A stretch of 56,187 nucleotides of DNA from Blastocatellia bacterium (lineage in GTDB: Bacteria; Acidobacteriota; Blastocatellia; RBC074). Positions 33,883-41,462 of this stretch are shown piece after piece. Within the stretch, counting starts at the first letter, position 1, and each line of letters begins with the position of its first letter. A program made the translations under genes and the position numbers. The notes below the pieces were generated by a model. It saw only the letters and a list, made by a program, of their open reading frames with translations. It was not told where the DNA came from and did not search any database. The stretch is from positions 1 to 56,187 of the forward strand of contig JBJXFI010000313.1 of NCBI GenBank assembly GCA_046154695.1. The letters run 5' to 3'.

Positions 33883-36495
33883 TCACAGCATAATGCCCTC
33901 TTCGCTGCGTCCGAGGATGCGGGCGACGACGCGCGCGAGCTCGACGGGTTCGACGGGTTTGGCCAGATGTTTCTGGAACCCGGCTTCGAGGGAGTGCTCC
34001 TTGTCCTGCGCGGCGGCGAAGGCCGTGAGCGCGACCGCGGGGGTTTCGCCGCCCTCGTCGGCGGAGAAGCGGCGGATGCGGCGGATGAGGGCGTACCCGT
34101 CCTCTTCCGGCATGCCGATGTCGGAGACGAGGACATCGGGGCGCCACTCCCGAAAGATCTCGACGGCTTCGCGGGCGGAGCCGGCGGTGCGCACCTCGGT
34201 GCCGTAGCGGAGGAGCATCACGGAGAGGATCTCGCGGGTGTCGTGATCGTCATCGACGACGAGGACGCGCGCGCCGCGAAGGCTGGTCGAACGGGTTTCC
34301 AACTGCCCGTCGGGACGTTCGGGCCAGAGATTGCCGTCGCTGCCGATCTCGGCCCGGGCGACGAGCGGCAGGGTGACCATGAAGTCGGAGCCCTGTCCCT
34401 CGCCGCGGCTGTACGCATAGATCGCGCCGCCGTGCAGCTCGACGATATGCTTGACGATGGCGAGGCCGAGGCCGAGGCCGCCCTGCCGGCGCTTGGAGGA
34501 GCTGTCGGCCTGGCGGAAGCGGTCGAAGATCTGCGGCAGAAATTCGGGATCGATTCCCTGCCCGGTGTCGCTGACGATCAGCAGGGCCTTGCCTTCGAGC
34601 CGCTCCAGCCGGACCTCGATGAGTCCGCCCGGCGGCGTGAACTTGATGGCGTTCGAGAGCAGGTTCCAGACGACCTGCTTCAATCGCTCGGCGTCGCCAT
34701 TGAAGGGGCCGACCCAGGGTTCGAGAACGATCTGCATGCGCAGGTTCTTGGCCTCGACCGACGGGCGGACGGCGTCGACGGCCGCCTCGACGACCGACAT
34801 CAATTCGACCGGCTTGCTTTCGATATTGAGCTTGCCGGTGGCAATGCGCGAGGCATCGAGCAGGTCGCCGACGAGATGGGCCTGCGACCGCGCGTTGCGC
34901 TCGATGGTCAACAGCGCGCGCTCGGCCGAGGAGCGGTCGAGCGCCCCGGAGCGCAGCATCTGCGCCCATCCGAGGATGGCCGTGAGCGGCGCCCGCAGCT
35001 CGTGCGAGATCATCGCCAGAAAATCGTCCTTCAGGCGGTTGGCGTCCTCGGCCACCTTGCGGGCCTCCTGCTCGCGCTCGAGCAGGGCGTACTGCTCTTC
35101 CTCGGCGGCCTTGCGCTCGCTGATGTCGCTGGCGATGCCGAGGAACCCCGTGACATTGCCCGCCGGATCGCGAAGCGCCGTGACCGAGAGGGTCACCTTG
35201 AAGCGGCGTCCGTTCCGGTGAAGGAATGTCCACTCGTGCTCGTTGGGGAGGTTGTACCGCGCCTTGGCCACGAGAACCTCGAAGCCGGACTGGACCAGGC
35301 TGCCGACCTCGGCCGAGAAGGCGCCCGCGCGGTCCTCGAGCTCCATTTGATCGTGGAAGAGATCGAGGCGGGCCTTGCCGATCACCTCCTCCGCGGTGTG
35401 CCCGAGCATCCGCTCGGCGGCCGGGTTGAACGTCAGAATCGTGCCGTCCTCGGTGGTGGAGATCATCAGATACCCGGCGTGCTGGAGAATCGCCTGCTGG
35501 ACGGCGGTCGCCTCGCTGACCGCGGCCTCGGCGCGCTTGCGCTCGCTGATGTCCCGGATGACGCTCATCATCATCGGACCGTCCTCGGTCTCGATCTGCC
35601 GGCGCGTGATCTCGGCTGGAAATTCGCGGCCGACGGCATCGACGAGAATGTATTCGACCTTCTCGCTGACGTCGCCGCGGGTTTCGGCATAGGGCATGTA
35701 GGATTCGTAGAGATCCTCATCGAGATCGAGCGGCTCTTCGCGATGGACAACCACGACCTGATCCTCATCGCTGTTGCGCAGCCGCTCAGGCACCAGAATG
35801 TCCACGTCCTGGTTGAGCAGATCGTCGCGCTTGTAGCCGAACAGCTTTTCGGTCTGGGAGTTGACGAGAACGATCTGGCCGGCCTGATTGGCGAGGACGA
35901 TCGCGTCGGGCGCGAATTCGAGCAGTTCCTGCAGCCGGGTGCGGGCCGCGACCAGGTCGTTGATCAGGCTCTGCTGATCGCGCATGTCGCGGGCGACGGC
36001 CAGCACGCCCGTAATCTTGTTCTGCTTGTCGTGCATCAGGCTGAGCGAGAAACTGACCTTGATGGTCGCGCCGCTCGACGTCCGGAGATCGATCTCCAGG
36101 TTGGAGATGCGGCCGGTCGGCGCCATCTCCATCAGCTTCCACGGGGTGGCGGGAATATCGTCCGCGCCGCAGACCGCCGTCAACGGACGCCCCTGAATCG
36201 AGGTCTCCTGGCATTCGAGCAGCGCCGCCGCCGCCGGATTGGCCCGAATCACCCGGCCGGACCGATCGGTCAGAAACAACGCCTCGGACATCGACGAGAT
36301 GACCTGCTGAAACAGATCCCGCGTCTCGGCGACCTCCGACGCGCGCCGCTCCAGTTCGAGCTGCGCGTTGTTCAATTCCGCGTAGGCACTCTGCAGGTTC
36401 GCGAACATGTCGGGCCAGGCGGCCTCATGCAATCGCCGCGCATCCTCGTCTCGTTCCTCTTCCAGACTCTTAAACTTCCAATTCGGGAGCCGCAT
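33883..36495 (-). CDS. Hybrid sensor histidine kinase: HoxJ/HupT-like N-terminal helix, three PAS domains, HisKA, HATPase, receiver
   Basis: GGAGG RBS before ATG 36495; PAS cores (ANPAA, VNSQTE, FNPAAE); SHELRAPL; [10 protein letters not shown]; DTGQGI; GLGLGL; receiver VLVVDD...SDIGMP...ALTA...KP; no TM helix. Confidence 0.93.
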
Positions 36496-36504
36496 TTCAT
36501 CCTC

Positions 36505-36595
36505 CAACTACTATCCAGCAAATACAATTCCGGGGGTCCAGGCAAAGCTGGCAACTACAATCCAGCAAATACAATTCCGGGGGTCCAGGCAAAGC
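36505..36595. repeat. Tandem 44-bp direct repeat (47-bp period) upstream of the kinase RBS
   Basis: CAACTAC(T/A)ATCCAGCAAATACAATTCCGGGGGTCCAGGCAAAGC at 36505-36548 and 36552-36595. Confidence 0.9.
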
Positions 36596-40412: not shown

Positions 40413-40613
40413 AGGCCATTGCCTCTTGACGCCAACATCTCTCCGCGCCCGATGGACCGTCCGGTCCCCGAGGCGCAGGCCGTCTTCATCGGCGGCAAGC
40501 GCGTCGGAGAGAGCCGCGTTCCACCTGCCTCGGCGATTGCATCGGAAGGTAAAGGTTCACGCTCATGCGCAGCGCCATGGAGAGATCCCGCCCGGAGAAT
40601 CTAAAGGAGAATC

Positions 40614-41462
40614 TCAAAAGGCCGGATCGGGCCGAGCGAGCGCGAGATGCTGGTCCACAAAATCGCGCTCCGTGCATCCGATACAGCTTCCGCCGACGCG
40701 CGTGCATCCGCCGAATCCGCGCAGCCACCCCGTAAAGGGCACCGGGCATTTGATAATCGGCCGGTTCGACAGATCGAACCCGGCGGCAGGCGGATATTCG
40801 ACACGCGGAGGCAACGGATACGTATCGTGATTGAACATCCATCGAGGACGGTGTTCCTCATCCAGATCCATAGGCACCAGTCGAGCCATATGAAGGAAGA
40901 CGTAGATCAGGGTTTCAATAAAGCCCTCGCCGGTCGGCGCGCATCCCGGCACGTTGACCACCGGCAGGCCGCTGCGACTGAGGAAGTCGCACCCCAGAAG
41001 GTCTTCGAGCCCCTGGGCGCCGATCGGGCTTCCAGCCGCGGCCGGCACTCCGCCCCACGTAGCGCAGGAACCGAACGCGACGACCGCCTCGGCTCCGGGG
41101 GCAAGCCGATGGACCCAATTGGCGATCGTCAGGGGACGCCCCTCGGGCGTGGCCCCCAACCGGGAGAAGCTGCCCTCTCCCGCAAGCGATTCGTCCGGGA
41201 TGGCCCCCTCCAACACCAGAACATAGGGCGAGAGAAATCCATCCGCGGCGCGGTCGAGATTGGCGCGAAAAGCGTCTCCGCTCTCCATCGCGAACTCGGG
41301 GTGGATCAGCACCACCCGCGGGGCGTCCGGGACGTTGCCGAGAATCAGATCCTCGATTCCCGGCTCTGACGCTCCCAGCATCGCCATCGTACAGCCGCCG
41401 CATCCCGCGCCGGACAGCCAGACGAGATGAACCGATTCCATTGATGGCAGATTGCCCTGCAT
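40614..41462 (-). CDS. [NiFe]-hydrogenase small-subunit homolog (cytoplasmic; no Tat leader)
   Basis: [34 protein letters not shown]...[14 protein letters not shown]; GAGGAG RBS before ATG 41462 (GTG 41474 is an alternative). Confidence 0.9.

Follow-up and report, generated by a model that had tools for sequence, protein, structure and literature searches.

Introduction

What can a hydrogenase still do once the residues that hold its nickel are gone? The question is raised by a locus in a 56,187-nucleotide stretch of DNA from a Blastocatellia bacterium (the window), which encodes the small subunit of a hydrogenase (S), a pair of large-subunit paralogs (L1 and L2) and a histidine kinase (HK). 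In catalytic large subunits the C-terminal DPCxxCxxH motif provides two ligands of the Ni-Fe centre, usually followed by a tail that is cleaved off by a protease, and two further cysteines lie in an N-terminal RxCGxC motif. We know of no Ni-Fe site without these four cysteines. Judging by sequence comparison, the complex is most likely a signalling device rather than an enzyme, because the Ni-Fe centre is lost yet the genes and the sensor kinase beside them show strong joint conservation. The reading we favour, and regard as rather probable, is that of a cytoplasmic signalling complex which descends from a kinase-coupled [NiFe]-hydrogenase and uses the Fe-S clusters of S as its input.

Results and Discussion

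Translation of the window's open reading frames places the four genes, all on the minus strand, exactly where the original prediction had put them:

40614..41474, minus strand: S, small subunit, 286 aa from GTG at 41474; Pfam PF01058
40413..40613, minus strand: S-L1 intergenic spacer, 201 nt
38538..40412, minus strand: L1, Cys-less large-subunit paralog, 624 aa; PF00374, E 3.5e-52
39180..39247, minus strand: (NRG)n-coding 9-bp tandem repeat within L1 (TRF, 7.6 copies)
36628..38475, minus strand: L2, Cys-less large-subunit paralog, 615 aa; PF00374, E 2.3e-51
33883..36507, minus strand: HK, soluble histidine kinase of hybrid type, 874 aa counted from TTG
35938..36507, minus strand: HK residues 1-190 (N-terminal helix and PAS-1), predicted S docking module

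The true start of S is likely the ATG at 41462 (282 aa), where its orthologs begin and where the original prediction had ended the locus, and HK comprises 870 aa if the ATG at 36495 is used as in the orthologs; the length of L2 is counted from the ATG of MVFKNLPIEFD, its longest open reading frame opening upstream at 38766. The S-L1 spacer contains no conserved open reading frame and varies from 25 to 394 nt across orthologs. The (NRG)n insertion covers about residues 390-424 of L1, where the pLDDT of the model drops below 50, and is missing from the closest L1 orthologs (600 and 598 aa). S shows no Tat motif by eye, the operon lacks accessory genes of Rieske or HupD type, and Pfam annotation of the 20 large open reading frames at 19-56 kb of the window revealed neither a hyp gene nor a gene for an Hpt protein or response regulator beside it.

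Both cysteines of the N-terminal motif are replaced in either paralog, as had been predicted: L1 carries RIEGTSSGAH where RxCGxCxxxH is expected, and L2 has RLSGRASGAN at the position of RxCGxC. The two reading frames are otherwise intact and full-length and finish exactly at ...RSFDP, followed by TAA, ahead of the C-terminal CxxCxxH; no xxCxxH appears on reading through the stops. Selenocysteine recoding was excluded, because orthologs carry TAA, TAG or TGA at this position. In 88 % of L2-type sequences, L2 of the window included, Gln takes the place of the catalytic Arg in the RG..H motif, and just 64 % of L1-type sequences keep this Arg. Among the best 120 database relatives, 96 share the RSFDP-type terminus, none of them with RxCGxC and 23 with its first Cys retained, and the remaining 24 possess both Cys motifs; the same truncation reaches relatives at about 52 % identity. 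Of the proteins in a 144-sequence alignment, 32 hold all four ligand Cys and 112 at most one. Many different residues occupy the first Cys position (E, K, R, S, N, Q, C and others), the second is mostly Ser, Ala or Gly, and conservation analysis of the alignment revealed no new conserved set of His, Cys, Asp or Glu residues where the enzymes bind their metal. Positions newly conserved in L1-type proteins, unlike in their catalytic relatives, are S119 and A121 within the old motif, G152, E256, N266, E290 and C462. Columns conserved to at least 90 % in Cys-bearing relatives (n=177) are kept to a large part (135 by L1-type, 128 by L2-type proteins), and those lost cluster at the active-site motifs.

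Pairwise dN/dS values (NG86; seven ortholog pairs for S, L1 and L2, three for HK) amount to 0.03-0.10 for S, 0.03-0.14 for L1, 0.07-0.18 for L2 and 0.09-0.10 for HK, at dS values of 0.4-2.3 for the L1 and L2 pairs. The order S-L-L-HK recurs in nine of 13 loci on genome contigs (L007-L014 and L016), with the second L of L013 keeping all four Cys; L017 reads S-L-HK with one Cys-bearing L, and the remaining three are short fragments. In every locus that is long enough, an HK ortholog lies downstream of the L genes. The Cys-less pair is rare, being found in two of 401 Acidobacteriota genomes of a species-level sample (G000 and G016), and G016 likewise encodes S, two Cys-less L proteins and HK. By these measures S, L1, L2 and HK are under purifying selection and conserved together, with no decay; the synteny and the link to the kinase gene that had been anticipated are both borne out.

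The proposed resemblance to group 1h/1l enzymes was supported for sequence and fold. The solved structure closest to L is group 1h 5AA5_C (E 1.1e-99; next structure 1.6e-36), which is also the best Foldseek match (E 1.2e-50, TM 0.94) of the AF2 model of L1 (mean pLDDT 88, pTM 0.89). As S matches HofK of the same structure (E 2.5e-68), the 'actinobacterial-type' high-affinity hydrogenase of group 1h, HofKG/HhyLS (PDB 5AA5), is the best match for both subunits. The motif ...GIDxxRxxRSFDP is common to L1, L2 and the enzymes of groups 1h and 1l, the latter treated by Ortiz et al. (bioRxiv 10.1101/2020.08.06.239558), and both sides are without a Tat signal by eye. L is 35-37 % identical to two acidobacterial 1h enzymes, and NCBIfam hydrogenase models all score far under their cut-offs (e.g. 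212 bits vs 600). Unlike group 1h, the system has lost the four Ni-Fe Cys and the distal cluster and has a kinase attached. These comparisons support a lineage of group 1h/1l-like enzymes for L1 and L2. Descent from group 4 (Ehr/NuoD) was rejected: group 1 supplies the best-matching models and structures, and the model of the nuoB family reaches only E 0.0098.

In a tree of 225 sequences we recovered a kinase-linked clade (n=157, support 0.986); among its 42 members with known context, an adjacent kinase was seen in 39 cases and the contig ends first in three. The Cys-less proteins are nested in this clade, whose basal members keep four Cys and are arranged as S-L(CCCC)-HK. One such locus, L075, reads S-L(CCCC)-HK-REC-PadR and is directly followed by a catalytic-type S and L pair. 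Intermediate loci pair one Cys-less with one Cys-bearing L, type D loci hold a single Cys-less L, and the Cys-bearing, kinase-less sister clade is 41-44 % identical to 1h. On this topology, kinase coupling is older than cysteine loss; given the basal S-L(CCCC)-HK loci, the immediate ancestor was probably a kinase-coupled H2 sensor already, not an energy-conserving uptake enzyme. The original picture of an uptake-type scaffold that lost its H2 chemistry and was repurposed therefore stands with regard to the ligand loss and probably has to be given up with regard to an immediate uptake-enzyme ancestor.

The eight Cys of S are invariant in all 20 kinase-linked S sequences: aligned to HofK, C25, C28, C137 and C178 coincide with the ligands of the proximal cluster and C243, C257, C264 and C267 with those of the medial cluster. 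In enzymes the distal cluster hands electrons to the acceptor; in S, the His alone is left of its HxxC...C...C motif and the loop with two Cys is deleted. Distal loop and C-terminal tail are missing from all kinase-linked S examined, and a cross-type alignment finds loop and tail kept and the distal motif intact in 1h and kinase-less relatives.

HK consists of a conserved N-terminal helix, PAS-1, PAS-2, PAS-3, HisKA, HATPase_c and REC (Pfam PF00512 2.6e-15, PF02518 1.2e-31, PF00072 1.2e-23 and three PAS domains), and many orthologs possess an extra GAF domain. Its N-terminus, with the signature helix AAWPxMFxNL..AY, is better conserved across locus types than any other part of the system, exceeding the identity of L in distant loci (e.g. 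78 % vs 52 % in L016), and the module is present in 156 database proteins. A 23-row alignment shows no invariant His or Cys in PAS-1 that would hint at an electron or redox cofactor. Complex prediction for S with HK residues 1-190, without the L subunits, returned an ipSAE of 0.65, which is the model's own confidence, compared to 0.01 for the best of three controls. As a guide, among solved complexes 58 of 80 reach the ipSAE mark, compared with 2 of 110 mismatched pairs, a rough calibration since our own alignments were used. Prediction runs share at least 88 % of contacts at a partner pLDDT of at least 81, and the predicted interface, formed on the HK side by residues 81-84, 121-123, 126 and 162-167, includes the invariant residues E187, P201 and W212 of S and G84, W123 and G167 of HK. 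The model thus suggests that PAS-1 docks on S; of the assembly of S, L1, L2 and kinase N-terminus envisaged originally, this contact is the part that the model covers.

Taken as a mechanism, S would still hold two [4Fe-4S] clusters, proximal and medial, the distal one having been lost. L1 and L2 would keep the hydrogenase fold and be unable to bind Ni-Fe, so that the complex would not split H2, and most likely serve as structural partners enclosing S; if group 1h, a dimer of heterodimers, is taken as a guide, the subunits may assemble as (S-L1)(S-L2). PAS-1 of HK is predicted to sit on S beside the medial cluster, at the site of the former distal-cluster subdomain. Redox state or integrity of the S clusters, responding for example to O2, oxidants or cellular reducing power, would then set kinase activity, and the phosphoryl group would leave via HK's own receiver domain to partners. 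Fe-S redox state is the probable signal. A more far-reaching version, in which gas channels of a nickel-free pseudo-hydrogenase gate a buried [4Fe-4S] cluster that is read by a PAS domain docked at the former place of the distal cluster, would constitute a new class of Fe-S-based redox, O2 or gas sensors and, with the Cys-bearing relatives included, a second, independent origin of hydrogenase-based two-component signalling, from group 1 instead of group 2; we put it forward only tentatively.

Each of the alternatives has some evidence on its side. That L1 and L2 are pseudogenes in decay, left over from a hydrogenase, is suggested by their lost catalytic residues and the lineage-specific low-complexity insertion of L1, and yet this reading is hardly credible: the frames are intact, gene order is kept, and the low dN/dS together with the truncation shared by most of the best database relatives refutes it, as it does the recent decay considered at the outset. 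We find it very improbable as well that non-cysteine ligands hold a catalytic metal site with which H2 is still sensed or oxidised. Fold and many second-shell residues are retained and hyp genes occur elsewhere in the genome, but all four ligands are missing, the C-terminal CxxCxxH segment is deleted and the catalytic Arg is widely replaced. HypD, HypF zinc-finger and HycI-type protease matches are all located on other contigs (C21, C110 and C349), and the protease adjoins a group-3b-like hydrogenase on C349, which accounts for the hyp genes. Furthermore, the genome holding L009, which may be incomplete, yielded no HypD match.

More weight, if still an unlikely reading, has the idea that the sensor is L rather than the S clusters, the vacated pocket of L1 and/or L2 and the remnants of their gas channels binding another small molecule or metal, which would make the complex a new type of ligand sensor derived from the hydrogenase fold. 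For a scaffold alone, two distinct Cys-less paralogs kept by purifying selection might be more than is required, L1-type proteins have gained conserved positions, and some truncated proteins keep the first Cys. Against this stand the variable replacements of the first Cys, the Ser, Ala and Gly that mostly replace the second, the missing new ligand set at the old metal site and the type D loci, which suffice with one Cys-less L. We give a similarly small chance to a signal-blind complex, a constitutive kinase partner locked in the 'no H2' state while PAS-2, PAS-3 or GAF domains read the inputs. The further PAS domains of HK, the GAF domain of many orthologs and the lack of a hydrogenase to regulate would fit: in the window's genome we found no group-1-type uptake hydrogenase, the group-3b-like one being the only other hydrogenase, and therefore the sensor's original purpose is gone. 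Structural Fe-S clusters do exist; a purely structural role is nevertheless hard to square with eight invariant ligands and the lowest dN/dS of the system in S. Cluster-based sensing by S remains our preferred reading.

Among the closest known systems are HoxBC-HoxJ-HoxA of Cupriavidus necator and HupUV-HupT, in which a cytoplasmic S and L pair is likewise encoded with a soluble PAS kinase, its presumed partner, and which share low or absent turnover and a signalling role, here deduced from sequence. The large subunits of group 2b also have no cleavable C-terminal tail, as is the case for L1 and L2. HydDB labels group 2b 'histidine kinase-linked' (PMC5037454), and the C. necator regulatory hydrogenase (RH-HoxJ-HoxA) is described as having an active Ni-Fe site, for which Hyp maturases are required (PMC10073562). 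In contrast, L1 and L2 are without Ni-Fe ligands, two L paralogs are present, S has two clusters instead of three and no C-terminal extension, and HK, unlike HoxJ and HupT, is of the hybrid type and carries a receiver domain itself. The system probably arose independently of group 2b, to judge from the E-value of L against group 2a Huc (1.7e-17) next to that against 1h. Non-H2-metabolising homologs named by HydDB are Nuo, Ehr, NARF and HmdII (PMC5037454). Ehr and complex I NuoD/NuoB are similar in being Cys-less L homologs kept for another function with an Fe-S S homolog, whereas L1 and L2 are soluble, outside a membrane complex and coupled to a two-component kinase. No description of a Cys-less, kinase-linked hydrogenase system was found in the literature searched.

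Conclusion

Public records name these proteins 'nickel-dependent hydrogenase large subunit', and metagenomic surveys based on homology only would tally Cys-less L proteins as H2-oxidising enzymes. How the H2 signal passes from hydrogenase to kinase is still unresolved for HoxBC-HoxJ, and the present locus contributes a family of hydrogenase modules with a kinase link that derives from group 1, probably independently of group 2b, with natural variants that have a full Ni-Fe site, one live and one dead L, or no Ni-Fe site. All of them combine the shortened two-cluster S with the highly conserved PAS module that is predicted to dock on it, and their comparison could reveal the signal-carrying part. 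On the more far-reaching version, the series from H2 sensor via mixed complex to nickel-free sensor would expose the signal path from hydrogenase to kinase. If the nickel-free complex senses redox state or O2 by means of its Fe-S clusters, it would represent a new sensor type in the abundant Acidobacteriota of soil and wastewater.

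Operon organization and genomic surroundings

A head-to-tail run of four minus-strand genes spans 33883-41474 of the window, and translation together with Pfam searches confirmed the co-directional small subunit (S), two large-subunit paralogs (L1 and L2) and hybrid kinase (HK) of the original prediction. Every NCBIfam hydrogenase model matched scored far under its cut-off.

Features of the operon and its boundaries
31073-33790, convergent to the operon: TonB-dependent receptor gene, boundary on one side
33883-36507, minus strand: HK, soluble hybrid histidine kinase with three PAS, HisKA, HATPase_c and receiver domains (Pfam)
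36628-38475, minus strand: L2, 615 aa from the ATG matching ortholog N-termini, PF00374
38538-40412, minus strand: L1, 624 aa, PF00374
40614-41474, minus strand: S, PF01058; ortholog start at the ATG at 41462
41828-44170, divergent from the operon: gene of a HAD and fatty-acyl-reductase protein, boundary on the other side

A divergent lipid-type cluster adjoins S at 41828-49111 (plus strand), with genes for the HAD/fatty-acyl-reductase protein, a DUF4199 protein, a second NAD_binding_4 reductase, a pyruvyl-transferase-like protein and an AMP-binding enzyme. Its synteny with the S gene also occurs in six comparison loci (L007, L008, L013, L014, L016 and L050), and either membership in the regulon or mere inheritance of gene order could account for it. 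Scanning 33500-42000 gave two promoter-like sites with 1.1 expected and seven terminator-like sites with 5.5 expected, none meaningfully placed. No small conserved ORF comparable to the small TM genes that separate hylS from hylL occurs in the S-L1 spacer. Five loci share a conserved non-coding element of some 70 nt in this spacer, GGCGTTCT...GGCACTTT...TTGAGCG...CCTACCCTCACAGGCT...CAAGCGTTCA, which the spacers of L007, L008 and the window lack. It might act as an internal promoter or as an RNA element.

S-L1 spacers bearing the element of about 70 nt
L010:2121-2341
L011:2395-2599
L012:5649-5908
L013:7607-8000
L014:7776-8000

The genome of the window (G000) comprises 6.43 Mb, is 100% complete by marker genes and encodes HypD and HypF on contigs other than the window. 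The only Cys-bearing hydrogenase found in it, on contig C349 (L057:6082-12482), is a group-3b-like [NiFe]-hydrogenase of the sulfhydrogenase type that has four subunits and a maturation protease of its own, and no further group-1-type large subunit was found in this genome. A universal stress protein gene adjoins the group-3b-like enzyme. Among 401 Acidobacteriota genomes, 25 matched at E ≤1e-50, and the Cys-less pair occurs only in G000 and G016, fragments in G298 being left out. HypD is present in three of five other carrier genomes and had no match in the remaining two, G402 (L009, type C below) and G403 (L013, type A), metagenome-assembled genomes (MAGs) that may be incomplete; G403 gave no HypD match although one large subunit of its operon keeps all four Ni-Fe cysteines.

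Loss of the Ni-Fe ligands under purifying selection

Where hydrogenases carry RxCGxCxxxH, L1 reads RIEGTSSGAH and L2 RLSGRASGAN, and both proteins end in ...RSFDP followed by TAA; the motif replacements and termini described originally were thus exact upon translation of both large subunits. Beyond either TAA, no CxxCxxH appears on read-through, and TAA, TAG and TGA all occur after RSFDP among orthologs, which rules out selenocysteine or read-through at this stop and shows that the truncation is real.

The L1 AF2 model is confident (pLDDT 88, pTM 0.89) except for an (NRG)n low-complexity insertion at residues ~390-424, which stems from 7.6 copies of a 9-bp tandem repeat (window 39180-39247). 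This lineage-specific insertion is modelled as disordered, and the nearest orthologs, at 600 and 598 aa, lack it.

Of 177 alignment columns at least 90% conserved in the Cys-bearing large subunits of types E and B (see below), 135 are kept in L1-type and 128 in L2-type proteins. The losses concentrate at L1 residues 62-98, the old L1 motif, the deleted C-terminus and the Arg of RG..H, which would be the catalytic Arg, as in Hyd-1; this position is 64% Arg in L1-type and 88% Gln in L2-type proteins.

Searching L1 against a collection of 5.8 billion proteins gave 1585 matches among 8000 scored candidates. Among the best 120 of these, 96 carry an RSFDP-type terminus, none of them with RxCGxC, while the remaining 24 possess both Cys motifs; the named sources are chiefly MAGs of Blastocatellia and other Acidobacteriota. 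An alignment of 144 sequences is equally clear-cut, 112 retaining a single ligand cysteine or none, 32 all four and nothing between. Pairwise NG86 dN/dS, taken at dS 0.4-2.3, amounts to 0.03-0.10 for S, 0.03-0.14 for L1, 0.07-0.18 for L2 and 0.09-0.10 for HK. Recent decay, for which orthologs retaining CxxC and a dN/dS near 1 had been named as signs, is not seen: dN/dS stays at 0.03-0.18 and the truncation is family-wide. The low ratios and the shared terminus in 96 of the best 120 relatives rule out pseudogene decay of L1 and L2.

Architectures and phylogeny

The comparison set consisted of 13 genome_contigs loci, phylum-sample regions and at least 80 metagenome loci, the latter found with an alignment of Cys-bearing relatives (at least 584 confirmed among 600 scanned stretches). 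The compared loci fall into five architectures, in which CCCC denotes a large subunit (L) with all four Ni-Fe ligand cysteines.

Architectures of the compared loci
Type A: S-L1(Cys-less)-L2(CCCC, end ...DPCxxCTVH)-HK; L013, L062, L063, L064
Type B: S-L(CCCC)-HK; L017 (Gemmatimonadota), L065, L066, L069, L070, L071, L074, L075, L087; in L067 and L068 the contig ends before any kinase position
Type C: S-L1-L2-HK, both L Cys-less; the window, L007-L012, L014, L016, L050 (G016), L089; L072 is a cut locus
Type D: S-single Cys-less L-HK; L094, L122
Type E: S + L(CCCC), kinase absent, S-L gap ~0 to 1.9 kb; at least 63 metagenome loci and L051-L054, not all contigs being long enough for a call

The four-gene order with both large subunits Cys-less recurs outside the window in the other uncut type C loci. 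In the type B locus L075 (6049-15773), a Cys-bearing S-L-HK unit (PAS-GAF) is followed by a single-domain receiver, a PadR regulator and a catalytic-type S (471 aa) and L. RH-HoxJ-HoxA of Cupriavidus necator is an H2 sensor controlling an uptake hydrogenase (PMC10073562), and by analogy the order in L075 looks like that expected for a group-1-derived H2 sensor beside the uptake hydrogenase it may control.

Among solved structures, 5AA5, a group 1h enzyme from R. eutropha, is closest to both subunits, with E 1.1e-99 for L1 (next structure 1.6e-36) and E 2.5e-68 for S (next structure 4.8e-27), and Foldseek aligned the L1 AF2 model to 5aa5_C with a TM of 0.94. The 1h side of the group 1h/1l likeness originally proposed from motifs was thereby borne out; the kinase-less sister clade (type E), a candidate for group 1l, is 41-44% identical to 1h. 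The large subunit shares 35-37% identity with two 1h counterparts from Acidobacteriota, and an ESM Atlas look-up returned generic hydrogenase clusters only.

Three large-subunit trees rooted on 1h (two by FastTree, with 144 and 225 rows, and one by an IQ-TREE quick search with 51) agree in topology. Type E forms a single clade (66 rows, support 0.994) sister to the kinase-linked one (157 rows, support 0.986); the S-L gaps of type E group into three classes, roughly 0-80 nt, 0.2-0.7 kb and 1.3-1.9 kb. In the kinase-linked clade, type B branches earliest, followed by the Cys-bearing L2 of type A, while the Cys-less proteins constitute one group (119 rows, support 1.0; 99 SH-aLRT in IQ-TREE) that divides into 17 L2-type and 102 L1-type rows. 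In the AU test, an alternative topology uniting the Cys-less L2 with its Cys-bearing counterpart from mixed loci narrowly escaped rejection (p 0.054), so that the cysteines may have been lost once or twice.

A small subunit with ligands for two clusters and its predicted docking to the kinase

The distal-cluster loop (HxxC...C...C) is gone from all kinase-linked S proteins, including partners of Cys-bearing large subunits, with the His alone kept, and the C-terminal tail is absent as well; type E and 1h S proteins, in contrast, keep both. The eight cysteines of the proximal and medial clusters, four each, are kept without exception in the kinase-linked S proteins aligned (20 of 20). As the lost cluster is the one handing electrons to the acceptor, its loss would fit a change from energy conversion to sensing, a switch that preceded the loss of the Ni-Fe site.

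HK residues 1-190 are the best conserved stretch of the whole system (78% identity between L016 and the window, with 52% for L1), comprising a helix with an invariant AAWPxMFxNL..AY and a PAS-1 domain whose TPW motif has an invariant Trp. The module occurs in 156 database proteins of 480-1530 aa (E ≤1e-10), and nearly all of the best 120 are PAS(-GAF)-HisKA-HATPase-REC kinases. In one of them, P0176, the same N-terminal docking module and PAS are combined with TIR domains (PF01582, PF13676) in place of the kinase core.

Complex prediction of S with HK 1-190, large subunits left out, scored 0.65, a model confidence rather than a measurement, with 0.01 for the best of three controls; the score mark used is reached by 58 of 80 solved complexes and 2 of 110 mismatched pairs, a rough guide only, as own alignments were used. 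Runs share at least 88% of contacts with a partner pLDDT of at least 81. The predicted contacts involve S residues 49-50, 187-215 and 248, a helix and loop reaching into the former distal-cluster region beside the medial-cluster ligands, and HK residues 81-84, 121-123, 126 and 162-167, several contact residues being invariant in the alignments. As no RH-kinase complex is known to us to have been solved, memorization by the predictor is an unlikely source of this score, and the model suggests that the PAS-1 region of HK docks on S.

Proposed function and evolution

The most economical reading of the window system is a hydrogenase-derived input module of a two-component kinase. A type B ancestor would have sensed H2 at its Ni-Fe site and passed the signal via the two-cluster S to the docked PAS domain; addition of a Cys-less paralog would have led to type A, and loss or conversion of the live large subunit in Blastocatellia-type lineages to types C and D. 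Because its two Fe-S clusters are the only redox-active parts left, the redox state or integrity of the S clusters is the likely signal in the window, with L1 and L2 likely serving as partners that enclose S.

A new ligand held in the old L1/L2 pocket might instead be sensed, which we consider improbable; comparison of alignment columns brings out no conserved new set of metal-binding residues in L1- or L2-type proteins, which speaks against such a pocket. It is just as doubtful that the Cys-less complex is a signal-blind scaffold whose kinase senses through its other PAS domains. The HydDB paper lists Nuo, Ehr, NARF and HmdII as the only non-H2 homologs and groups 2b and 2c as the only sensory [NiFe] classes (PMC5037454), and full-text literature, exclusive of supplements and subscription journals, yielded neither Cys-less group-1-type large subunits nor a kinase-linked group 1 clade. 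A regulatory hydrogenase with its kinase and Cys-less hydrogenase homologs are kinds already known; this family stands apart by an apparently independent origin, two pseudo-subunits, an S with two clusters and a graded series of naturally occurring intermediates.
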